A stretch of 46,775 bases of DNA from an uncultured Candidatus Saccharibacteria bacterium (GCA_964609815.1 CAZSRV010000001.1:12868-59642); one strand, 5' to 3'; numbered from the stretch's first letter, positions 10,503 to 26,612 are shown. Numbers and translations are program-made. Notes: generated by a model not told the origin, from the sequence alone.

Positions 10503-11324
10503 ATGTATAAAATAAAAAGGACATTATCGGGATTAATAGGGGTAGCTGTCTTGGTTGCTGCTTTTGGGGTGTTTGGAACGCTGGTTAATGCTCAGAGTGT
10601 TTTGCAAGGTTATTCATCAGAAGAAAAACTCCAAAAAGGTATGTTGGTAGCTCTAAAGGAGGGGGATGAAGGTAAAATAGTCGCCCTAACCAACGAAACT
10701 GCCAGTAGGTTTAAAGGCGTGATAGTTGATAAAAATGACTCGCCAGTAACTATTAGTAGCGAAGACCATCGGTTTTTTGTAGCTACTAGTGGTCCGTATG
10801 AGGTTTTAGTTAGTAATGAACGTGGTGCTATAACTAAGGGTGATTATATTTCGGTTTCTTCTAATCCTGGGATTGGTGCCAAAACGTCAGAAAACCAAGA
10901 ATTTGTGATCGGAATAGCTACTTCTGACTTTGGTGGTGGCGGTGAAGCTGTCAGCACTACCGAAGCAGGTGGTCGCAAGGCTAGTGTTGGACGTATAACA
11001 ATTGATGTAGCTTTTAGCAAAAACCCAAATATGAAAGCGCCAGAAAAGGACAAGATACCAGATGTAATTCAGAAGTTCAGTAACACCATTGCCGAAAAAC
11101 CAGTCAGTAACACTCGTATATATATCGCCTCGGCGGTGCTTTTGATTACAGCTTTTATAACAGGAACCATGCTTTATGGAGGTGTTAGAAACGCCATAAT
11201 CTCTATTGGTCGTAATCCACTGTCCAAGGGTAGGATTATCAAAGGCTTAATACAGGTTATAATTATGGCGCTTATTATTTTCATTGTGGGCGTATTTGGG
11301 GTATATTTAATAATAAAGCTTTAG
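10503..11324 (+). CDS. Secreted-domain membrane protein with a C-terminal c-subunit-like helical hairpin
   Basis: Signal peptide ending LVNA/QS, then a roughly 170-aa beta-rich domain. The hairpin has two TM helices joined by the loop RNAIISIGRNPLSKGRIIK. Neither TM helix contains Asp or Glu. Confidence 0.8.
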   Translation: MYKIKRTLSGLIGVAVLVAAFGVFGTLVNAQSVLQGYSSEEKLQKGMLVALKEGDEGKIVALTNETASRFKGVIVDKNDSPVTISSEDHRFFVATSGPYEVLVSNERGAITKGDYISVSSNPGIGAKTSENQEFVIGIATSDFGGGGEAVSTTEAGGRKASVGRITIDVAFSKNPNMKAPEKDKIPDVIQKFSNTIAEKPVSNTRIYIASAVLLITAFITGTMLYGGVRNAIISIGRNPLSKGRIIKGLIQVIIMALIIFIVGVFGVYLIIKL

Positions 11325-11989: not shown

Positions 11990-12661
11990 ATGACCGAGCA
12001 CAAAAACCAAGATCAAGAAGTATTCAAACTACCACATAGGTTAGTGAGTTCTGTTGACCTAGCTAGAGTTACTCGCGAGCTAAAATTATTGGATGACTGG
12101 TTTAATCAAAACGAAATTCGTGACGCCGGTAAGCAAGCTAATCCCCCCAAGACCAGCACCACTTTAGAAGAATTGGCTAGTAGTAATGGCGTGTCGGTTT
12201 TGGATAAAAGTCAAAGATCACAGTTGATTGGTTTGTTGGATAATTTTATTGTTAATGCTCCCAAAATTCATATTGCTTTTGCCGTAGAGCCATCGGTGCG
12301 ATTTCTGAATGAAATGATTATTTGGCTCAGAAGCCATATTAATCCGGTTATATTGCTAGAAGTGGGTTTGCAGCCGGCACTAGCGGCTGGCTGCAGTGTA
12401 CGTACTACCAATAAATTATTTGATATGAGTTTACGTAACCATTTTCGGGATTCTAGACATTTACTTTATCAATCAATCAAAGAGTTTGGCCAGGATAAGT
12501 CTCCTGGTGGAGTCAGTGAAAGTCCTCAGGCTCAAACACCTATACCGACTAAAGAAGCTCCAAGCGAACCTGCTCAAACTGCTGCAGTACCTATGACTAG
12601 TCAAGTGCCAGCACCAACAGCAGCCCAGCCAGTAACTACAGAGGTAGTCGATGCAAAATAA
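11990..12661 (+). CDS. atpH: ATP synthase subunit delta (OSCP)-like with a Pro/Thr/Ala/Gln-rich C-terminal tail
   Basis: The C-terminal domain pattern [11 protein letters not shown]...[32 protein letters not shown] parallels the delta motif (v.l....d.sl.gG..v..gd...D.S.r..l). It sits between the b-like and alpha genes. Confidence 0.6.
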
Positions 12662-14071
12662 TCACTTTGACAAGTTAGTTGGTAGTGGCGCGCCAGTTGG
12701 CGAGGTTGTCTCGGTTGACAAGTTTTTGGTAAACGTCAAAGGCCTGCACCCAGTAGCGGTTCATGCCCTAATAATGTTTGAAGATGGTAGTAAGGGCTTT
12801 GTTCAGGAAGTGACGCCACAATCAGTGGTTATATTGCATTTGGGCACTAAGACTTTGACTATTGGTATGATCGCAGTTGTTCAGCACCAGGAACTGGTTT
12901 GCAAAGTAGGTAAAGACTTTATCGGACGGGTTATATCGGTCAACGGTGAGCCTTTGGACGGCAAAGGTTCTATTGCTCCAGACGGAACTCGTAAAGTGTT
13001 CAGTACAGCCCCGCCACTTTATGAAAGAAAACTGCTAGAAGACCAGCTAGAATCAGGCGTTACAGCGGTAGATGCTATCTTTCCATTGGTGCGGGGCCAG
13101 CGTATTGCTCTACTGGGCGACGGTAAATCGGGCAAAAGTACACTGGCTACTCAGCTAACGATCAACCAAAAAAACACTGATCAAGTAGTGGTCTATTGTT
13201 TGATCGCCAAACGCAGGAGTGACGTTGATGATTTGCTTAGCAAACTCCAAGAAACAGACTCATTAAAATCAGCGATCGTGATGGTGTCTACAATGTTTGA
13301 ATCACTAGTTATGAGCTATTTGGCGCCATACGTAGCCTGTGCCATGGCCGAATATTTCTGGCAAGAATGCGACAATGACACCATTATTATTTACGACGAC
13401 CTAACATCTCACGCCCATGCTCTGAGGGAGATGGCCTTACTTATGGGAACTAGTCCTGGACGTGATAGTTATCCGGGTGATATGTTCTATGCGCATTCGT
13501 CCTTGCTAGAGCGCGCTGGTCGTTTGGATCGTAATAGCAAATGTCTGACATCTATCCCACTAGTGCATGCTGCTAATGGCGATATAACAGCTTATTTGCC
13601 AACCAATATTATGTCTATTACCGACGGGCAGTGGATTTTAGACATGGATTTGTTTAGGTCTGGGTTACGTCCGGCGCTTAATAGTGGACTGAGTGTTACT
13701 CGTATCGGAGGAGTCGGGCATAATAAACGTCAAAAGGCTCAGGCAGCAACTACCCTAAAGACGCTAGCAGCTTACCGCGAGGCCGAAGAATTTTCTCACT
13801 TTGGATCAGAACTAGCGCTAGAAGCCAAAGTGGCCCTAGAAAGGGGTAAAAACATCTTCAAAATCCTCAGCCAAGGGCCATCTGACACTTATTCGTTTAT
13901 GGAACAACAGTTAATGCTGGACATCGTCCTTAACACCGATCCAGAGATAAAGTTTGATGTAGACTCTCTAAAGGCTAATGTAAAGGAAATAGCTGCCAAA
14001 GTTACCAAAGATGAAGAATTTGACAAAGCTCGCGATGAATTGCTAGCCAAATGCAAAGTGGAGCTCAAAAA

Positions 14072-14075
<4 letters not shown>
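12651..14075 (+). CDS. atpA: ATP synthase subunit alpha (divergent, 474 aa)
   Basis: P-loop [43 protein letters not shown] and [14 protein letters not shown]. Confidence 0.9.
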
Positions 14076-16239
<2,164 letters not shown>

Positions 16240-16241
16240 CC

Positions 16242-16607
16242 ATGGCTGATGATGACAAAAAACCACCTGCCGAAGAACCAAAAGCTCCGCAGGCTGAAGA
16301 GCCAGCCAAAAAACTAACCAAAGAAGAAAAAAAGGCTCAGGCAGAGGAGTTCAAAAAAACTTCTACTGTTCGCCTAAAGGTTTATTCACCGTTTAGGGTA
16401 TATTATGATGATGATGCAGAGAGTGTCTCGGCCGAAAACGCCACCGGGCCGTTTGATATTTTGGCTCAGCACCGCAATTTTATCACACTACTTGTGCCTT
16501 GTGAGATTGATGTTAAATCATCCAAAACCGGCAATAAAAAGATCAAAATCAACCGTGGTGTGATGCATGTTAGACAAAACAAAGTCACCGTCTTTTTAGA
16601 CGTCTAG
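16242..16607 (+). CDS. atpC: ATP synthase subunit epsilon-like (beta-sandwich only, Lys/Glu/Pro/Ala-rich N-extension)
   Basis: It is the last gene of the operon. Residues from about 40 to 121 (VRLKVYSPF...GPFDILAQHRNFITLL...GVMHVRQNKVTVFLD) follow the epsilon N-domain pattern. There is no C-terminal helical hairpin. Confidence 0.65.
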   Translation: MADDDKKPPAEEPKAPQAEEPAKKLTKEEKKAQAEEFKKTSTVRLKVYSPFRVYYDDDAESVSAENATGPFDILAQHRNFITLLVPCEIDVKSSKTGNKKIKINRGVMHVRQNKVTVFLDV

Positions 16608-18795: not shown

Positions 18796-19578
18796 ATGAA
18801 GACTATAAAAAAATCACTATTGTATGGATTAGTAGTTAGTTTGGGGTTCTTGGCAGCGCCAGTTTATGTATTGGCGCAGGCTTCATCCAATAACTATCGG
18901 CTAGAAGAATCATTCTTTGGTACTGGCGGTGAGGTAGACGCTAGCTCTAACAACTATCGGTCGCGCCAATCAGCCGGAGCTTTGGGTGTCGGTGATGTAT
19001 CCAGTACCAATTATGACGCTAGCCTTGGTAATATTACCCAAGACCAGCCGTTTTTAGAAATGGTGGTTACCGGTGGCCCTATAGATTTTGGTGATCTATC
19101 GTCTTCGTCTACATCTTATGGTTCACCAGTTGGCGGTGCTTGTAACTGCTCGTTTTATGTTCGCACTTATTATTCGTCGTCTTATGTGGTGCTCAGCGCC
19201 AATAACCAGCCGGCTACTAGCGAGGGCGGTGCGTACCTAGCGCCCAAGACAGTGCTGGGCCCACCATCTGGTAGCCAGAGCACCGAAGAGTTTGGCTATA
19301 ACCTAGTAGCCAACACATCACCAGGCAACTTTGGCGCTAACCCTACTAACCAGCCAGACAACAGCTTTGCTGACGGTGTAATAGCCAGTGGTTATGACAC
19401 ACCCAATGAGTTTAAGTTTGGTGCTGGCGAGACGCTAGTGCAGTCACCAGGGACTATAGGCAACCCAGCAATTGGTCAGACAGACTACACTATTAGCTAT
19501 ATAGCCAAAAAGAAGCCGACCACGCCAGCCGGTATGTATGTGTTCAACCACGACCTAGTGGCTGTAGCTACATATTAA
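18796..19578 (+). CDS. Secreted surface-locus protein, paralogue family member (260 aa)
   Basis: Sec signal peptide ending VLA/QA and three S-S-x-N-Y repeats (SSNNYR, SSNNYR, SSTNYD). The C-terminus is PAGMYVFNHDLVAVATY. Confidence 0.75.
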   Translation: MKTIKKSLLYGLVVSLGFLAAPVYVLAQASSNNYRLEESFFGTGGEVDASSNNYRSRQSAGALGVGDVSSTNYDASLGNITQDQPFLEMVVTGGPIDFGDLSSSSTSYGSPVGGACNCSFYVRTYYSSSYVVLSANNQPATSEGGAYLAPKTVLGPPSGSQSTEEFGYNLVANTSPGNFGANPTNQPDNSFADGVIASGYDTPNEFKFGAGETLVQSPGTIGNPAIGQTDYTISYIAKKKPTTPAGMYVFNHDLVAVATY

Positions 19579-19726
19579 GCTGAGTTTTGGCTGATTGTGT
19601 ATAGGTTTGTGTACATTTTGTGTAAAATCTGTGGATTTCTGTGGATAAAGTACTTGCATCAGTGTATAAGCTTATGCTATAAACAGAGGTATGTTATCAA
19701 ACATAAAAAATATTTAAAAAAATATA

Positions 19727-20999
19727 AAAGGAGAAAACAAATGCAACGTATGTTTTGTGTAGATGCTATGCGCTACAAGCTAAGACAATTGTCTACTTTA
19801 GCAATAACATCTACTTTAGTACTATCGGCTCTAGCCCCAGTCCTATTCTTTGGACAAGCTAGTGCTGCTCAGATAACTGAGCGAAAAATAACAATGAGCA
19901 CGTCACAAAGGGCGGCCACAGGAGTAAGTTATGCGGTATCGTTTAAGCCAGCGACATCCATAACAGCTACGGGTATGGTCGTAGAATTCTGTGCTAACAG
20001 TCCGCTTGTCGGTTCTAGCTGTACGGCACCAGCTAACGGAAACACTCTAGAAGGTTTTGTGGGAAATACTGGTTCAGTCAGTGGATCTTGGGTGATTGAC
20101 GGAACTTCTGATGCTAATACATTAATCCTAACCCACTCTGGTGCCACATTGACTGCTGGCAGTACATTTACTGTAACGGTATCTGGTGTAACTAACCCTA
20201 CCTATGACAGTGTGCAACCAGCTACTTTCTACGCCCGTATACTGACCTATACAGGTAGCCCAACTGGTTACACCTCAACATCACCCGGCTCTTACACTGA
20301 CCAAGGTGGTATAGCTCTAACAACTAACAACCAGCTACAAGTTGATGCTCGTGTCCAGGAAGAATTGGAATTCTGTGTTGGTACTGTAGATAACACAGTT
20401 ATATCTAACGCTACAACACCGGCTAACTGTTCAGCTGCTCCGTTCTCTAGTGCTACGCCTACAGTAGACATAGGTACTATTAGTTCTACAACTACATCAA
20501 TATCTCCAATAGCTGTATCTTCTGGCGGTAATAACATGAACGGTGCTGCCATGATCCGTACTAACGCCGTTAACGGTGCTACCATTACTTACTTCGCCGA
20601 GCAAGAAACTGGCTCTGGTCGTCTAAAGGTAGCTGGTGCTACATGTACTGGCTCATCAGGTTTTGATGCTGGATCTGGCGTAACTGATCAATGTTTTGGT
20701 AGTAGTTCTACTCAGGGTGACTTCTCTACAGCAGGTGAGAAGTTTGGTATGACATCTTCTGACGTTTTTAGGCCAACTGGTTCTACAACTACCAACCTAA
20801 CACGTGATGCTTCTTATGACGGTGACGGAACTGCTGCAAGTGGGTTTGCTTGGCAACAAGATGGCACTACGACCACTTTAGCTACATCTAGCACTGTTAT
20901 GGACTATGAGATGCTACTACTAAGGTTTGCAGCCCGAACATCTGCTACTACACCTACTGGTAGTTACTCTGTAACTAGTACATACGTAGCTACATCAAC
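19727..20999 (+). repeat. Copy 1 of a 1273-bp direct repeat
   Basis: It appears identical to 21872-23144. Spot checks at the start, middle and end matched, and the sense ORF and two antisense ORFs in different frames translate identically. Identity begins 14 nt before the ATG (AAAGGAGAAAACAA) and ends 5 nt before the stop codon. Confidence 0.9.
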
Positions 21000-21006
21000 C
21001 TTCTAA
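19741..21006 (+). CDS. Secreted surface-locus protein, copy 1 (421 aa, ends ...ATSTF)
   Basis: The ATG at 19741 has AGGAGA 6 nt upstream and matches the start of copy 2. It has a signal peptide (GQASA/AQ), conserved Cys pairs (EFCANSPLVGSSC, EFCVGTVDN...NC) and the C-terminus TGSYSVTSTYVATSTF. Confidence 0.85.
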   Translation: MQRMFCVDAMRYKLRQLSTLAITSTLVLSALAPVLFFGQASAAQITERKITMSTSQRAATGVSYAVSFKPATSITATGMVVEFCANSPLVGSSCTAPANGNTLEGFVGNTGSVSGSWVIDGTSDANTLILTHSGATLTAGSTFTVTVSGVTNPTYDSVQPATFYARILTYTGSPTGYTSTSPGSYTDQGGIALTTNNQLQVDARVQEELEFCVGTVDNTVISNATTPANCSAAPFSSATPTVDIGTISSTTTSISPIAVSSGGNNMNGAAMIRTNAVNGATITYFAEQETGSGRLKVAGATCTGSSGFDAGSGVTDQCFGSSSTQGDFSTAGEKFGMTSSDVFRPTGSTTTNLTRDASYDGDGTAASGFAWQQDGTTTTLATSSTVMDYEMLLLRFAARTSATTPTGSYSVTSTYVATSTF

Positions 21007-21032
21007 ATATCAGAATATAGATAAAAGGTTAC

Positions 21033-21062
21033 AAAAGAGTCCGGCTCACCCCGGACTCTTTA
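21033..21062 (+). terminator. Hairpin terminator after copy 1; left copy of a 30-bp direct repeat
   Basis: AAAAGAGTCCGGCTCACCCCGGACTCTTTA has a 9-bp stem AGAGTCCGG/CCGGACTCT. It is identical to 21657-21686. Confidence 0.7.
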
Positions 21063-21202
21063 GTTTATGTGCGCTGACCCATTGACATAAGCGGTTATTC
21101 TGTGTTATATTAACAGGCAGACAAGCGCCAAACGCCTGTCACTAGGAACTTCGTCGTAGTTTATACACTACACCCAGCGAGGTTCTTTTTTATTGGATTT
21201 AT

Positions 21203-21613
21203 CTATCTTGGTGGAAATACCGACATAAAGTATTTGTTGCCAGTTTTGTTATCCTGCTTAATTTGCACGTAAAATAGTTCGTCGTTTGTCGTAATACCTG
21301 CAAATCGATAGACTATTTCGTTTTTACCGTTTGGGTTGCGTTTATCTATTGGTGTCATGCGAGAGTTTTGTATAAGATCAAGTGCTACCGCATATAGCTT
21401 TAGGCGTCGTTTTCTATCTGCCCGAGGCTTTTGGTTAAGATGGCTCCAGAATACATCAATGAACACCTTATCTTTGTCAAAATAGGCGCTCTTGATATAC
21501 GGTGTTCGCTTGGTGCTGTGCGCATGTTTATTGTGTAATGCACGAGCAACTCGCTCAACGTCAATATATGCACGCCCAGGTATCTTTTGTAGTTTTGACT
21601 TATAGACTTTCAT
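21203..21613 (-). CDS. Hypothetical basic protein (136 aa) inside the inter-repeat cassette
   Basis: It is the only ORF between the two 30-bp repeats. It is Lys/Arg-rich and no family was recognised. Confidence 0.6.
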   Translation of the reverse strand: MKVYKSKLQKIPGRAYIDVERVARALHNKHAHSTKRTPYIKSAYFDKDKVFIDVFWSHLNQKPRADRKRRLKLYAVALDLIQNSRMTPIDKRNPNGKNEIVYRFAGITTNDELFYVQIKQDNKTGNKYFMSVFPPR

Positions 21614-21656
21614 TATGTACTATTTTAGCACGAAATCAAGCTACTTAACTCTGATA

Positions 21657-21686
21657 AAAAGAGTCCGGCTCACCCCGGACTCTTTA
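21657..21686 (+). repeat. Right copy of the 30-bp hairpin-containing direct repeat
   Basis: Identical to 21033-21062, with a spacing of 624 bp between copies. Confidence 0.85.
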
Positions 21687-21871
21687 ATTATTACATATCA
21701 TAAGTCTAATGCTGGTAAGGTGTATACTCTCTATAGAACTGCAGTTTTATCCACTACAGGGGTAGCAATTATAAACAGTTTATCCACAGATACAGGTGGC
21801 GGCTATTGCAATATACAAACCACTTATGGTATAAATTAGCTACAACATACAAAAATAAAAAACAATTTAGT

Positions 21872-23144
21872 AAAGGAGAAAACAAATGCAACGTATGTTT
21901 TGTGTAGATGCTATGCGCTACAAGCTAAGACAATTGTCTACTTTAGCAATAACATCTACTTTAGTACTATCGGCTCTAGCCCCAGTCCTATTCTTTGGAC
22001 AAGCTAGTGCTGCTCAGATAACTGAGCGAAAAATAACAATGAGCACGTCACAAAGGGCGGCCACAGGAGTAAGTTATGCGGTATCGTTTAAGCCAGCGAC
22101 ATCCATAACAGCTACGGGTATGGTCGTAGAATTCTGTGCTAACAGTCCGCTTGTCGGTTCTAGCTGTACGGCACCAGCTAACGGAAACACTCTAGAAGGT
22201 TTTGTGGGAAATACTGGTTCAGTCAGTGGATCTTGGGTGATTGACGGAACTTCTGATGCTAATACATTAATCCTAACCCACTCTGGTGCCACATTGACTG
22301 CTGGCAGTACATTTACTGTAACGGTATCTGGTGTAACTAACCCTACCTATGACAGTGTGCAACCAGCTACTTTCTACGCCCGTATACTGACCTATACAGG
22401 TAGCCCAACTGGTTACACCTCAACATCACCCGGCTCTTACACTGACCAAGGTGGTATAGCTCTAACAACTAACAACCAGCTACAAGTTGATGCTCGTGTC
22501 CAGGAAGAATTGGAATTCTGTGTTGGTACTGTAGATAACACAGTTATATCTAACGCTACAACACCGGCTAACTGTTCAGCTGCTCCGTTCTCTAGTGCTA
22601 CGCCTACAGTAGACATAGGTACTATTAGTTCTACAACTACATCAATATCTCCAATAGCTGTATCTTCTGGCGGTAATAACATGAACGGTGCTGCCATGAT
22701 CCGTACTAACGCCGTTAACGGTGCTACCATTACTTACTTCGCCGAGCAAGAAACTGGCTCTGGTCGTCTAAAGGTAGCTGGTGCTACATGTACTGGCTCA
22801 TCAGGTTTTGATGCTGGATCTGGCGTAACTGATCAATGTTTTGGTAGTAGTTCTACTCAGGGTGACTTCTCTACAGCAGGTGAGAAGTTTGGTATGACAT
22901 CTTCTGACGTTTTTAGGCCAACTGGTTCTACAACTACCAACCTAACACGTGATGCTTCTTATGACGGTGACGGAACTGCTGCAAGTGGGTTTGCTTGGCA
23001 ACAAGATGGCACTACGACCACTTTAGCTACATCTAGCACTGTTATGGACTATGAGATGCTACTACTAAGGTTTGCAGCCCGAACATCTGCTACTACACCT
23101 ACTGGTAGTTACTCTGTAACTAGTACATACGTAGCTACATCAAC
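21872..23144 (+). repeat. Copy 2 of the 1273-bp direct repeat
   Basis: See copy 1. The offset between copies is 2145 bp. Confidence 0.9.
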
Positions 23145-23151
23145 ATATTAA
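21886..23151 (+). CDS. Secreted surface-locus protein, copy 2 (421 aa, ends ...ATSTY)
   Basis: The protein is identical to copy 1 except for the last residue (Y instead of F). Confidence 0.85.
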   Translation: MQRMFCVDAMRYKLRQLSTLAITSTLVLSALAPVLFFGQASAAQITERKITMSTSQRAATGVSYAVSFKPATSITATGMVVEFCANSPLVGSSCTAPANGNTLEGFVGNTGSVSGSWVIDGTSDANTLILTHSGATLTAGSTFTVTVSGVTNPTYDSVQPATFYARILTYTGSPTGYTSTSPGSYTDQGGIALTTNNQLQVDARVQEELEFCVGTVDNTVISNATTPANCSAAPFSSATPTVDIGTISSTTTSISPIAVSSGGNNMNGAAMIRTNAVNGATITYFAEQETGSGRLKVAGATCTGSSGFDAGSGVTDQCFGSSSTQGDFSTAGEKFGMTSSDVFRPTGSTTTNLTRDASYDGDGTAASGFAWQQDGTTTTLATSSTVMDYEMLLLRFAARTSATTPTGSYSVTSTYVATSTY

Positions 23152-23186
23152 TCCTTTGCTAAATATAGATTTAGGCAACAATTATC

Positions 23187-23216
23187 AAACAGGTCCCATA
23201 TCTGGACCTGTTTTGA
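23187..23216 (+). terminator. Rho-independent terminator after copy 2
   Basis: AAACAGGTCC-CATATCT-GGACCTGTTT forms a 10-bp stem and runs into TTTTG. Confidence 0.7.
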
Positions 23217-23360
23217 TTTCGCAATTTCCGCACCGCCCAAGCCTGTCCACCGGCGGAGCCGGTAGGTCCGCTTGGGCCTCTTAGGCCTTAGCGATTATTT
23301 TTCCTGTGAGTGCTCCTTCACAGCGTACCATATGTACACTTCTGTCCGCTCCCCAGGAAA
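23217..23360. other. GC-rich, helix-rich intergenic island (possible small RNA or leader)
   Basis: GCCCAAGC (23235-23242) pairs with GCTTGGGC (23270-23277), enclosing ACCGGC-GGA-GCCGGT. GGCC-TCTTA-GGCC follows. TTTCCTG (23299-23305) pairs with CAGGAAA (23354-23360). Confidence 0.3.
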
Positions 23361-23361
23361 T

Positions 23362-23393
23362 AACAACCACTATGGCACTAATTGCAAGAGTTG
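23362..23393 (+). repeat. 32-nt conserved motif upstream of the 345-aa gene
   Basis: AACAACCACTATGGCACTAATTGCAAGAGTTG matches 24499-24530 at 29 of 32 positions. It lies 60 nt before the start codon. Confidence 0.7.
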
Positions 23394-23452
23394 TGTTAGT
23401 TTAAGCATAGACATTTTGGCTGGTCAGAACATATAATAATATGGGATAGACT

Positions 23453-24490
23453 ATGAGGACATATATAAAACAGCTATTTATAGTAGTGATAGCCCTGATA
23501 ACCGTCCTGGCCGGTTGGCCAGCGGGACAGGCTAGGGCGGCTGACCTGAATAATCGCAGTGTTACTATTGGTACTTCTACGCCGTCTGCTACGACGTCTT
23601 ATAGGTTTAGGTTTGACATACCATCGGTCAATACGGTGGGATCTATAGTTATAGAATTTTGCCAGACTAGTCCGCTATATGCAGTAACCTGTGTGTTGCC
23701 TAGTGGTTTTAACGCATCGGCAGCTACGCTGACATCACAGACTGGCGAAGTAGGTTTTAGTATTGACCCCAGTAGCACCAACAATACTATAGTGTTAACC
23801 AGATCACCGTCACTAACATCTATTGGTACAGCTAGATATAATTTTTCTGGTATTGTTAACCAAGATTTTATTGGTACTAGCTATATCAGGGTGGCAACTC
23901 ATGCCTCTACTGATGGTAGCGGGCCGCGCATAGATTCTGGTGGCTTGGCATATTCTACTGCTTATGGAGTATCTGTAGATGCCTATGTGCCGCCATATCT
24001 TACTTTTTGCGTGGGAGTGACTGTAGCTGGTGATTGTAGCTCGGCTACCGGTCAGTTTTTGGGATTTGGCGAGCTGACTAGCAATGCGCCACGTTATCTG
24101 ACTTCTCAGTATGCTGGTGCTACTAATGATCCAGGTGGTTTTAGTGCCTCGGTTACTGGTGTGACCATGACCTCTGGTAGTAATGTTATACCGGCCTTGG
24201 CATCGCCCACGCCGTCATTCCCAGGTACTAGCCAATTTGGTATGAACGTGCGGTCCAATACTAATCCTGGAGTAGGGGCGGATCCTTCGGGACTAGGTAC
24301 ATCTATGCCAACTAGTGATTACTCCCAAGCAAATTTGTTTACGTTCAAAAATAATCAGGTAGTGTCGGCGTCTAATTTGTCTACTGACTTTAATTTGTTT
24401 ACCGTGACGTATCTGGTAAACGTTAGGCAAGGCCAAGCGCCTGGCGTGTATAACACTACCTTGACTTACATTGCTGTCGCTGCGTTTTAA
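23453..24490 (+). CDS. Secreted surface-locus protein, paralogue (345 aa)
   Basis: Signal peptide ending GQARA/AD. It shares motifs with the 421-aa proteins (EFCQTSPLYAVTC, LTFCVGVTVAGDC). The C-terminus is PGVYNTTLTYIAVAAF. Confidence 0.8.
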   Translation: MRTYIKQLFIVVIALITVLAGWPAGQARAADLNNRSVTIGTSTPSATTSYRFRFDIPSVNTVGSIVIEFCQTSPLYAVTCVLPSGFNASAATLTSQTGEVGFSIDPSSTNNTIVLTRSPSLTSIGTARYNFSGIVNQDFIGTSYIRVATHASTDGSGPRIDSGGLAYSTAYGVSVDAYVPPYLTFCVGVTVAGDCSSATGQFLGFGELTSNAPRYLTSQYAGATNDPGGFSASVTGVTMTSGSNVIPALASPTPSFPGTSQFGMNVRSNTNPGVGADPSGLGTSMPTSDYSQANLFTFKNNQVVSASNLSTDFNLFTVTYLVNVRQGQAPGVYNTTLTYIAVAAF

Positions 24491-24498
24491 TTAAACAG

Positions 24499-24530
24499 AA
24501 CAACCACTATGGTACTAATTGTAAGGGTTG
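24499..24530 (+). repeat. Second copy of the 32-nt motif, upstream of the 327-aa gene
   Basis: AACAACCACTATGGTACTAATTGTAAGGGTTG lies 90 nt before the GTG start. Confidence 0.7.
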
Positions 24531-24619
24531 CGATATATACTTAGTAAAAATAGTATTTACAAAAGCTAAAATAATGCTTATAGTTACTGCTAGATATTCA
24601 AACAAATTGGAGGGATAGA

Positions 24620-25603
24620 GTGTTATCTAGAATAAAAAAACTATCAATTGGTGGACTATTGACTTTATTTGCTGTGGCTTTAGTCATGCCATCACTAACT
24701 GTTGTAGCTCAGGACTCAACAGGTAACGGGTTGTTGATTTCGCCAACCAGGACGGAACTAACAGCCAACGCAGGAGAAGTCAAAGACTTTTCTATAACAG
24801 TAAAGAACGTAACCCAGGGTGAAGTTACTGCCAAAGCTTACCTAAACGACTTTGAGTCTGATGGTACTACTGGTACACCAAAGATCATAACTGATGATCG
24901 TCGGACACCTTACACGTTAAATAATATGCTACAAGGTCTAACTGACTTAGAGCTAAAACCGGGTGAGACTAAGCAAGTTAACTTGAACTTAACTTTGCCA
25001 GATGACGTAGCTCCAGGTGCTTATTTTGGCGCAGTGCGTTATGCAGCTGTACCAAAAGGTCAGACCGATGACCAGCAACAGCAGGTGTCACTAACAGCTA
25101 GCGTGGCTCACTTAGTGTTCCTAAACGTTCCTGGTAATATTACAGAGCAGATCAAACTAGAGAAGCTATCTGTTAGCAACGAAAAGAGCCAGACAGGTAT
25201 CTTGTTTAATAAACCTACAACTTCTGCTGTAACTGTAAAGAACTTGGGCAACGGATTCTCTCGTCCTTTTGGTACAGTTAGTATCTACAAAGGCAATAAA
25301 GAGATCTACAAGTACGATGTTAACAAGACCGACCCTAAGGGTATAGTGCTGCCTAACTCTACAAGGGTGTTTGAAGACAAGGTAGAGAACGTCAAAACTC
25401 CTGGTAAATACAAGGCTGTAGCATCAGTTGCTTATGGTAACGGTGGTGAGGTTGTGAATCTTACAACAACATTCTGGTATCTACCAATCTGGTTTATTGC
25501 CTTGCTAGTAGTCATTTTGGCTGCAATCGTCTTCGGTGCCTTCTACTTGTACCGCAAGGTAGCCGGTGGTCGTGCTTCATCTGGCAAAAAATCTAAGCGC
25601 TAA
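24620..25603 (+). CDS. Membrane-anchored two-domain Ig-like surface protein (DUF916/DUF3324-like, CscA-like)
   Basis: GTG start with GGAGGG 5 nt upstream, and a signal peptide (VVA/QD). The N-domain reads LLISPTRTELTANAGEVKDFSITVKNVTQGEV. The C-domain reads VTVKNLGNGFSRPFGTVSIYKGNKE...LPNSTRVFEDKV...PGKYKAVASV. A C-terminal TM helix and basic tail follow. Confidence 0.75.
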   Translation: MLSRIKKLSIGGLLTLFAVALVMPSLTVVAQDSTGNGLLISPTRTELTANAGEVKDFSITVKNVTQGEVTAKAYLNDFESDGTTGTPKIITDDRRTPYTLNNMLQGLTDLELKPGETKQVNLNLTLPDDVAPGAYFGAVRYAAVPKGQTDDQQQQVSLTASVAHLVFLNVPGNITEQIKLEKLSVSNEKSQTGILFNKPTTSAVTVKNLGNGFSRPFGTVSIYKGNKEIYKYDVNKTDPKGIVLPNSTRVFEDKVENVKTPGKYKAVASVAYGNGGEVVNLTTTFWYLPIWFIALLVVILAAIVFGAFYLYRKVAGGRASSGKKSKR

Positions 25604-25627
25604 ATTAAGTAAAATATAGTATAGGGG

Positions 25628-25676
25628 ATAACCCGTCCACACTTTAGAATTTCTACAAAGAGGACGGGTTATTTTT
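25628..25676 (+). terminator. Hairpin terminator after the 327-aa gene
   Basis: ATAACCCGTCC pairs with GGACGGGTTAT (11-bp stem, 23-nt loop), followed by TTTT. Confidence 0.55.
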
Positions 25677-25715
25677 ATAACGCTTATGCTATGATAGTAT
25701 TAAACAGAAGTTAAT

Positions 25716-26612
25716 ATGATAAAAGTAAGAATGATAAAAAAGTTTAGTCTGCTTACTGCGCTGGTGGTATTGGGTACAGTTTTGCTCACCCCAGGCGCTT
25801 TTGCCGCCCAAGAGCAAGGATCGGTTGGTCTGGAGGGCAAAATTAGTTCACCTCCGCCAACTACTCCAGCCACTATAACCTTTCCTAGGGATGGCACGGT
25901 TAGCTCGGAGCAGACAATAACCGTTACCGGTATTTGTCCTAATGGGTTGTTGGTCAAGATATTCAAGAACAATGTGTTTTCTGGCGCAGCACAGTGTAAT
26001 AATGGTAGCTATTCGGTGCAAATTGACTTATTTACCGGCCTGAACGAGCTAGTTGCCAGAGTTTATGATGATTTGGATCAAGCTGGTCCAGACTCTAACA
26101 TAGTAAAGGTAACAGTACCGGCAACATCAGTTAATATTGGCGCCAAAATATCTATAACCAGTAGTTTTGCCAAAAAAGGTGCTAATCCAGGCCAAAAGAT
26201 TGTTTGGCCGATTACTATATCTGGTGGTAACGGGCCTTATGCTATAACCGTAGACTGGGGCGATGGCAAAACGGCAGATATAATATCACAGACCTTTGCC
26301 GGTACGTTTAATATTGAGCATGTTTATGATAACCCTGGTATCTATAATGTGATTATTAGGGCTGTAGACAAAGATGGCAATGTGGCGTTTTTGCAATTGG
26401 TTGGTGTAGGTAACGGCGAGGCCGGGCAAAATGTCAGTACAGAAGCTGGTGATGTTAATGGCGATAACAATAGTCAGCCAGCCAAGGTAAAAGTATTGTG
26501 GTTGCCAGCTTTGATCAGTATCCCGCTGATTATTAGTACGTTTTATGTTGGTCGTAAATACGAACTTCGGGCTTTGCGTAAGCGGCTAGAACAGCGTGAT
26601 GAACCTCGTTAA
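25716..26612 (+). CDS. PKD-domain surface protein with a C-terminal membrane anchor
   Basis: Signal peptide (GAFA/AQ), PKD signature ITVDWGDGKT...HVYDNPGIYNVIIRAVDKDGN, and the C-terminal TM helix WLPALISIPLIISTFYV. Confidence 0.8.
   Translation: MIKVRMIKKFSLLTALVVLGTVLLTPGAFAAQEQGSVGLEGKISSPPPTTPATITFPRDGTVSSEQTITVTGICPNGLLVKIFKNNVFSGAAQCNNGSYSVQIDLFTGLNELVARVYDDLDQAGPDSNIVKVTVPATSVNIGAKISITSSFAKKGANPGQKIVWPITISGGNGPYAITVDWGDGKTADIISQTFAGTFNIEHVYDNPGIYNVIIRAVDKDGNVAFLQLVGVGNGEAGQNVSTEAGDVNGDNNSQPAKVKVLWLPALISIPLIISTFYVGRKYELRALRKRLEQRDEPR

Follow-up and report, generated by a model that had tools for sequence, protein, structure and literature searches.

Two kinds of pilus that assemble without an usher provide the closest comparisons for the locus described here. 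Troman et al. (bioRxiv 2026, PMC13278184) solved two filaments of Candidatus Mycosynbacter amalyticus by cryogenic electron microscopy (cryo-EM), and the NCBIfam models for the Pam pilus of the Candidate Phyla Radiation (CPR) derive from that study. In the available portion of the preprint, each pilin has a beta-sandwich at its N-terminus, joined by one linker strand to an open immunoglobulin (Ig)-like C-terminal domain that accepts the linker strand of its neighbour (the published PamA/B structures are PDB 25PZ and 25QA). The same text describes an operon without an usher, encoding membrane-anchored chaperones (PamC/D, with a FimC/PapD fold and a C-terminal transmembrane (TM) helix), a single-domain tip protein (PamT) and an RbmA-like, TM-anchored PamR, and reports that ATP-synthase genes and a tail-fibre-like gene adjoin pam operons across CPR genomes. 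Pam pili are thought to let ultrasmall parasitic CPR bacteria reach and bind host bacteria. The second pilus, reported in October 2026 by Sleutel et al. (bioRxiv 2026, 10.64898/2026.10.17.759780), is built in Enterococcus faecalis from WxL pilins by donor-strand exchange, with DUF916/DUF3324 proteins as membrane-anchored chaperones. We analysed a 46,775-nucleotide stretch of DNA from an uncultured Candidatus Saccharibacteria bacterium (GCA_964609815.1, CAZSRV010000001.1:12868-59642), which we call the window and whose positions are counted from its first letter. At 18796-26612, an initial sequence-only reading had proposed a chaperone-assisted surface fibre. We conclude, with a probability of roughly 85%, that a Saccharimonadales (CPR/Patescibacteria) bacterium carries a core Pam pilus operon at this locus.

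Six plus-strand open reading frames (ORFs) of 260, 421, 421, 345, 327 and 298 amino acids (aa) lie at 18796-26612, at the very coordinates where six signal-peptide protein genes on one strand had been proposed. A hydropathy scan finds a hydrophobic, signal-peptide-like N-terminal segment in all six proteins, ending each time in an AxA-type site (cleavage sites were read by eye). The genes had also been called consecutive; they are not strictly so, because a 136-aa minus-strand ORF separates the two 421-aa copies. The NCBIfam release of June 2026 holds three models for a 'CPR-type Pam pilus': NF058578 (PamR, equivalog, cut-off 300 bits), NF058579 (PamT, equivalog, 240 bits) and NF058581 (Pam_pilin_C, 55 bits). 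Against these, the 298-aa protein scored 381.2 bits over 282 residues as PamR, and the 345-aa and 260-aa proteins scored 135.2 and 94 bits as Pam_pilin_C, each above its cut-off. NF058577 and NF058580, considered as further Pam models, were rejected as the unrelated families FdxA_fam and lipase_V. The proposed chaperone-assisted fibre is thus supported by the Pam model matches and by the homology of the 327-aa protein to DUF916/DUF3324 chaperones. The accompanying remark, which called loci of this sort essentially uncharacterised, no longer applies, since Pam pili have been solved by cryo-EM (PMC13278184, 2026). The operon is of a known kind, and the fibre reading is no longer novel because Troman et al. 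(bioRxiv 2026) have already published the Pam donor-strand-exchange pilus.

That the four secreted subunits are paralogous holds up: sequence and profile comparisons place their relationship far beyond chance. The 421-aa and 345-aa pilins are 33% identical across their N-terminal halves (BLASTP E 4e-20), and profiles of the two families, built from 40 and 45 homologues respectively, align over their full length (hhalign 100%, E 1.2e-42, 326 columns). The 260-aa family aligns with the 345-aa family (99.7%, E 9e-27) and with the 421-aa family (93.9%) through the C-terminal domain only. Among the motifs listed by the sequence-only reading, EFCxxSPL...C and the linker xFCVG recur in the 421-aa and 345-aa pilins, where the full-length alignment spans them together with the terminal G-x-Y...T-Y-I-A-x-x-F strand. 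They are absent from the 260-aa protein, whose resemblance is limited to the C-terminal domain and to the terminal G-x-Y...Y-I-A...F/Y strand, an element common to all four. Ser, Thr, Gly and Ala together make up 40-50% of pilin residues. Ten homologues looked up by accession carried the label 'hypothetical protein' or spurious names, with no WP_2607632xx among them.

The predicted fold of the 421-aa pilin agrees with the published architecture. Its AlphaFold2 (AF2) model (predicted local distance difference test (pLDDT) score 84) comprises an N-terminal beta-sandwich at residues 45-194, a linker strand (LEFCVGTV) at 209-217 within a block of pLDDT ~97, and an incomplete Ig-like C-domain at 266-419, the layout of PamA/B as given in the available portion of the preprint (PMC13278184). 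The mature protein has a mass of 38.5 kDa and three Cys pairs, the figures that the same portion reports for PamB. In the 345-aa pilin the linker strand reads LTFCVGVTV. Few stretches of the pilins are as well conserved as the linker (PPYLTFCVG / LxFCVG) and the terminal strand, and a conserved aromatic residue ends every sequence. We presume the 421-aa pilin to be the major, shaft-forming subunit because of its strong ribosome-binding site (RBS), the terminator after each copy and its variable copy number. The 345-aa pilin, whose 45 orthologues are 40-55% identical, is encoded directly upstream of the chaperone or one gene apart in every related locus; given this position beside the chaperone and PamR, it is probably a base or adaptor pilin (PamE-like). 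The 260-aa protein has a single-domain architecture and is encoded by the first pilin gene of the operon, as a PamT-like tip pilin. A separate feature of PamT is its mature N-terminus (window 18877-18990, from residues 28-65 on), where three SS(P/N)NY(R/D) repeats precede the pilin domain and are kept in 33 orthologues; the segment may serve tip-specific binding or capping.

The 327-aa protein ties this locus to the WxL pilus. It carries a signal peptide and two Ig-like domains, and hydropathy puts a TM helix near its C-terminus (281-315), ahead of a basic tail. Its own match to Pfam PF06030 (WxLIP_PGBD, formerly DUF916) is 23.6 bits, under the gathering threshold (GA) of 27.3; across 30 chaperone homologues, PF06030 matches 29 at E<=0.01, the best at E 6.5e-10. 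Neither PF11797 (DUF3324) nor PF00345 (PapD_N) was detected in any of the 30. By hhalign, the chaperone profile aligned with a single Enterococcus faecium DUF916/DUF3324 protein at 93.5%. Six such proteins, drawn from food and soil Bacilli (Enterococcus, Lactiplantibacillus, Levilactobacillus, Pontibacillus and Bacillus mycoides), were combined into another profile; it matched the chaperone profile at 98.5% (E 3e-15) over 273 columns that take in both Ig-like domains and the TM tail. DUF916 genes on Bacillus anthracis plasmids were among the matches listed. An AF2 model (pLDDT 80) shows two beta domains and a helix at 290-316, and Foldseek places pilus chaperones on top of its structural matches: E. 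faecium WxLIP is best (9i1y, and 9i25, a complex with a WxL protein), followed by CfaA, CsuC and Caf1M (E 1e-12 to 1e-8). Both earlier suggestions about this protein, a membrane-anchored two-Ig protein of DUF916/DUF3324 (CscA) type and a resemblance to PapD-like chaperones, are therefore upheld, the chaperone-usher chaperones ranking after WxLIP. Against E. coli K-12 FimC, hhalign gave 0.6% and no sequence homology. R140 is invariant and R44 is kept in at least 90% of the 30 homologues; their positions recall PapD R8/K112, which we take to be the residues that grip the subunit C-terminus.

By these sequence comparisons the Pam chaperone is a homologue of the Bacillota WxL (Elr) pilus chaperone, while the subunit families differ: the DUF916/DUF3324 family assembles WxL pili in enterococci, listeriae and lactobacilli, and Pam pilins are unrelated to WxL in sequence. 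Homologous membrane-anchored chaperones make a common origin of Pam (CPR) and WxL (Bacillota) pili probable, a conclusion we draw from the shared chaperone set beside the differing subunit families. Sleutel et al. call the WxL pilus system confined to Bacillota and make no mention of CPR (10.64898/2026.10.17.759780), and the available portion of the Pam preprint mentions neither WxL nor DUF916 (PMC13278184). As far as that portion extends, the link between the two chaperones is made in neither preprint, and the shared family contradicts the phylum-exclusive claims that each makes for its own usher-less donor-strand-exchange pilus. The homology suggests that bacteria lacking an outer membrane have a single, older family of pilus chaperones tethered to the membrane, and the locus adds one more well-documented case of a Pam chaperone as a DUF916-family protein. 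As a side observation, the best plasmid tblastn match of the chaperone is a 272-aa two-Ig-domain hypothetical protein on Deinococcus sp. AB2017081 plasmid NZ_CP140100.1 (E 0.02, 71% coverage); its gene adjoins small hypothetical proteins and a 1090-aa CarboxypepD_reg-domain protein (L059:5854-11539). This is possibly another chaperone-type fibre locus, outside CPR and Bacillota.

PamR closes the operon. In addition to its signal peptide and Ig/fibronectin type III (FnIII)-like domains, the 298-aa protein has a TM helix at 255-279 and a basic tail (hydropathy), and its mature N-terminal strand, GSVGLEGKIS, is 70-90% conserved in 54 sequences. The earlier description of this protein was right about the C-terminal anchor; its PKD match scores 22.3 bits, below the Pfam threshold of 27, and the firm identity is the NCBIfam one. 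NCBIfam names it 'RbmA-like PamR', and like Vibrio cholerae RbmA, a biofilm matrix scaffold with tandem FnIII domains, it has tandem Ig/FnIII-like domains. It differs from RbmA by the C-terminal TM anchor and the conserved N-terminal strand, and is proposed to be a pilus terminator and anchor rather than a polysaccharide binder.

Compared with the M. amalyticus system, the locus has the same protein families, a two-domain pilin with a linker strand, a membrane-anchored chaperone and a TM-anchored RbmA-like PamR; it comes from the same bacterial class and, going by the available portion of the preprint, has the same ATPase and tail-fibre-like neighbourhood. It departs in carrying its shaft pilin gene in two identical copies, with a C-domain too diverged for the NCBIfam model. 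Several points weigh against the Pam assignment. The 260-aa protein matches the PamT model end to end (213.1 bits, E 3.9e-63) and still falls 27 bits short of the cut-off, and the 421-aa pilin reaches only 17.8 bits as Pam_pilin_C, also below threshold. M. amalyticus has two chaperones and three two-domain pilins, whereas here there are one chaperone, two pilin types and PamT. Exact orthology to PamA, PamB or PamE rests on size, Cys count and position. Foldseek returned generic Ig-domain matches only for the 421-aa model (integrins, BslA, MSCRAMMs), with no WxL or pilin structures among them. PDB sequence searches with the 421-, 345- and 327-aa proteins and with profiles A1, A3 and A6 gave nothing meaningful in a set that did not contain 25PZ and 25QA. 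Generic Ig matches are also what one would expect of independent, non-polymerising Ig-fold surface adhesins or a wall-associated layer, among which the 327-aa protein would be one more anchored protein with Ig domains. CPR surface proteomes commonly contain secreted proteins rich in Ser and Thr, and the evidence for polymerisation comes entirely by homology. We nevertheless regard such a set of separate adhesins as unlikely: specific Pam models match, the linker and terminal strands are the most conserved stretches of the subunits, as strand exchange would lead one to expect, the top structural matches of the chaperone are bona fide pilus chaperones, and a gene set and order fixed in about 50 related genomes point to one machine.

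The chaperone raises two other possibilities. Its homology to DUF916/DUF3324 proteins, together with a best PDB match to E. faecium WxLIP and its WxL-protein complex, could indicate a Bacillota-type WxL/Csc system, that is, an Elr-like pilus or cell-surface complex made of WxL-domain proteins, where the donor strand sits at the N-terminus and sortase does the anchoring. Secreted subunits alongside a membrane-anchored chaperone do parallel elrABCDE (10.64898/2026.10.17.759780). The Elr/WxL pilus of E. faecalis and other Bacilli (ElrE chaperone, ElrC/D WxL pilins, ElrB LPxTG anchor) and the present system have homologous membrane-tethered chaperones and are both usher-less, but they part company elsewhere. 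The subunits here are not WxL proteins and match Pam models instead; the donor strand is the N-terminus in Elr pili and an internal linker in Pam pili; and a TM protein takes the place of sortase/LPxTG anchoring. As the sequence-only reading had stated, no subunit in the locus has a WxL motif. A search for PF13731 found nothing, either genome-wide or among 45 orthologues of the pilins, the two Pam pilin families score 6.6% and 8.9% against an Enterococcus WxL profile (hhalign), and the idea that Pam pilins are diverged WxL domains was rejected on the same evidence (no PF13731 match, 6-9%). PF11797 is undetected in the 30 chaperone homologues, there is no LPXTG subunit, and the two sortase genes of the genome are on another contig (contig 13). 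A regular-expression search of the locus proteins agreed with the earlier statement that LPXTG and prepilin signals are absent: it found no LPXTG in the six pilus proteins, no LPXTG-like motif except an internal VPATS in PamR, and no class III prepilin signal (G-F-T-L-I-E type). We judge a WxL/Csc system to be very unlikely. The remaining option is a chaperone-usher pilus of the classical kind, with an usher that has diverged beyond detection or falls in the ~10% of the genome missing from a 90% complete assembly. The 327-aa model does match CfaA, CsuC, Caf1M and FimC-type chaperones (Foldseek E 1e-8 to 1e-10), and chaperone-usher pili (Fim/Pap, archaic Csu, alternative CFA/I) have the predicted two-domain chaperone fold and a conserved aromatic C-terminal subunit strand in common with this locus. 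A further parallel, an incomplete Ig-like subunit completed by a donated strand, may be drawn from what the available portion of PMC13278184 reports for Pam. Yet the expected usher, already noted as missing by the sequence-only reading, has no PF00577 match in the genome by a search whose E. coli control was positive, and no usher-sized gene lies within the operon in about 50 syntenic loci. Sequence homology to E. coli K-12 FimA and FimC was likewise rejected (hhalign 2% for the pilin profile, 0.6% for the chaperone), and PF00419 (Fimbrial family) is matched by one of 45 pilins (E 0.003). Pam pilins have an extra N-terminal domain and an internal donor strand, and Saccharibacteria have no outer membrane. 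The chaperone here is membrane-anchored, which no classical chaperone is (10.64898/2026.10.17.759780). A chaperone-usher pilus is accordingly the least probable of these explanations, and we give it almost no weight.

For the Pam pilus, a path of assembly can be proposed from homology with the solved Ca. Mycosynbacter amalyticus system. What the sequences themselves show is which genes are present, their families and paralogy, the predicted folds and topologies, and the conserved synteny; polymerisation, the order of the subunits and their function are inferred. All subunits would be exported by Sec. In each pilin the C-domain, an incomplete Ig-like fold, would leave a groove open, which the tethered chaperone would cap by lending one of its strands. 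Donor-strand exchange would follow and build the polymer, with the linker strand between the two domains (xFCVG) of one pilin filling the C-domain groove of its neighbour. The single-domain PamT would start the fibre and cap its distal tip, the duplicated 421-aa pilin would elongate the shaft through linker-strand exchange, and the 345-aa pilin, as a second shaft or base subunit, would join the shaft to PamR. There the strand GSVGLEGKIS would fill the last groove and the TM helix would hold the fibre, with neither an usher nor a sortase step. The fibre's probable role is to reach out to host bacteria and bind them. Coordinates of all features are collected in Table 1.

Table 1. Genes and other features of the predicted Pam pilus locus and its immediate surroundings (window coordinates).
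Feature	Coordinates	Strand	Remarks
Beta-helix ('tail-fibre-like') protein, membrane-anchored, 340 aa	16830..17852	-	Divergent from operon; conserved neighbour; weak Bactofilin match
TM-anchored protein, 232 aa	18047..18745	+	Conserved inside operon; invariant Cys pair
PamT-like single-domain tip pilin, 260 aa, mature ~24 kDa	18796..19578	+	NF058579, NF058581
Presumed shaft pilin, copy 1, 421 aa	19741..21006	+	Perfect repeat with copy 2; RBS; terminator
Insert with 136-aa ORF (21203-21613, -)	21033-21689	-	Hairpin-bounded; not part of the pilus
Presumed shaft pilin, copy 2, 421 aa	21886..23151	+	Identical to copy 1 except last residue; downstream hairpin
Second two-domain Pam pilin, 345 aa, mature 32.6 kDa, two Cys pairs	23453..24490	+	NF058581
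Membrane-anchored putative pilus chaperone (PamC/D type; DUF916/DUF3324 family), 327 aa	24620..25603	+	PF06030, hhalign, Foldseek
PamR, proposed RbmA-like terminator/anchor, 298 aa	25716..26612	+	NF058578

Gene order at the locus is conserved. We scanned synteny with one genome per species and obtained 52 chaperone-encoding loci, all titled Saccharibacteria, Saccharimonadales or unclassified Patescibacteria. Every locus of sufficient length showed the order ATPase alpha-gamma-beta-epsilon, beta-helix protein (opposite strand), 232-aa TM protein, PamT, one to three 421-type pilins, 345-type pilin, chaperone, PamR, mnmA and alaS. The 327-aa gene and the paralogous subunit genes keep a fixed order across the roughly 50 related genomes retrieved. 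Sampling 201 genomes from Saccharimonadia, we found the chaperone encoded in 98 (70 of 118 genera), in one to seven copies. The present genome has one chaperone and four pilin-C genes, all within the window, and its locus is therefore a lean core version of the Pam system. With a single chaperone, a tip protein, one or two types of pilin and an anchor, this appears to be the minimal and widely conserved version of the operon.

Upstream of the operon lie the genes of an F1-type ATPase (12651-16607; the lead gene of the ATPase operon is at 10503-11324) and the beta-helix gene. In every Saccharimonadales locus of sufficient extent, both come before the pam operon. The 340-aa beta-helix protein has a weak Pfam Bactofilin match (21.8 bits), no PHROGs match and an orthologue at the same position in 32 related loci; it is a conserved operon neighbour and may be part of the pilus machine. 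The 232-aa protein, also present in 32 related loci, has an N-terminal TM anchor (13-44), an extracytoplasmic domain of ~185 aa and an invariant Cys pair (C149/C174), and belongs to no family in Pfam, PHROGs or PDB. In a few loci its gene has another place within the operon: in L033 and L036 it follows PamT and precedes the shaft pilin, and in L034 and L056 it separates the 345-type pilin from the chaperone. Because it changes place and yet stays inside the operon, the conservation suggests that it belongs to the Pam system as a candidate extra component. The components named in the available portion of the Pam preprint (PamA-E, PamT, PamR; PMC13278184) do not appear to include it.

These neighbours invite the idea that the divergent ATPase operon, the beta-helix protein and the 232-aa TM protein are coupled in function to the Pam pilus and, for instance, power its assembly, rotation or retraction. 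We know of no energy source or retraction machinery for Pam pili, and the genes stay adjacent throughout Saccharimonadales and in some other families. Among the 201 genomes, 82 have both the ATPase lead gene and the chaperone, 16 the chaperone only, 43 the lead gene only and 60 neither, giving an odds ratio of 7.2 that is uncorrected for phylogeny. The two genes are 7-22 kb apart in the same order and some other families; elsewhere they are separated by hundreds of kb or found on different contigs. This distance in several families and the 43 genomes with the lead gene but no chaperone weaken the case, as do the housekeeping genes mnmA and alaS, which are equally syntenic on the other side of the operon, so that general collinearity explains most of the ATPase adjacency. 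We therefore think functional coupling quite unlikely.

A 37-nt direct repeat (23362-23398 and 24499-24535, 86% identical) lies directly upstream of promoter-like sites of the 345-aa pilin and the chaperone, and could be a shared operator. Of its length, 32 nt fit a degenerate pattern, with none expected by chance. It is not conserved in 42 related genomes, where the best shared 28-mers are paralogous pilin 3' ends only.

The 421-aa gene is duplicated as a perfect 1273-bp repeat in the assembly (19727-20999 = 21872-23144). The repeat begins 14 nt 5' of the ATG at 19741, including the strong RBS (AAAGGAGAAAACAA-ATG), and stops 7 nt before the stop codon; the two products therefore differ only in the last residue, F in copy 1 and Y in copy 2. 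The longest ORF of copy 1, from a GTG at 19597, is not supported, and we prefer the ATG because the repeat and the RBS begin at 19727. Hairpins lie downstream of copy 1 (a terminator, 21034-21061) and of copy 2 (23187-23213), so that each copy is flanked by a strong RBS and a terminator hairpin, as expected of a major subunit. The ends of the repeat coincide nearly exactly with those of the pilin gene and the flanking sequences are unrelated, a pattern that fits gene conversion between tandem paralogues already present better than it fits a recent segmental duplication. Related genomes carry one to three diverged shaft pilin copies. An assembly artefact may be another source of so perfect a repeat.

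Between the copies, the insert is bounded by two near-identical hairpin repeats of ~30 bp (21033-21065 and 21657-21689; repeat family D3). Its basic 136-aa ORF has no PHROGs match and 226 representative relatives. In some of these (P0326, P0332) the domain forms the C-terminus of large HNH and STAND/NACHT-type NTPase proteins, which hints at a conflict- or defence-related domain carried on a small mobile cassette.

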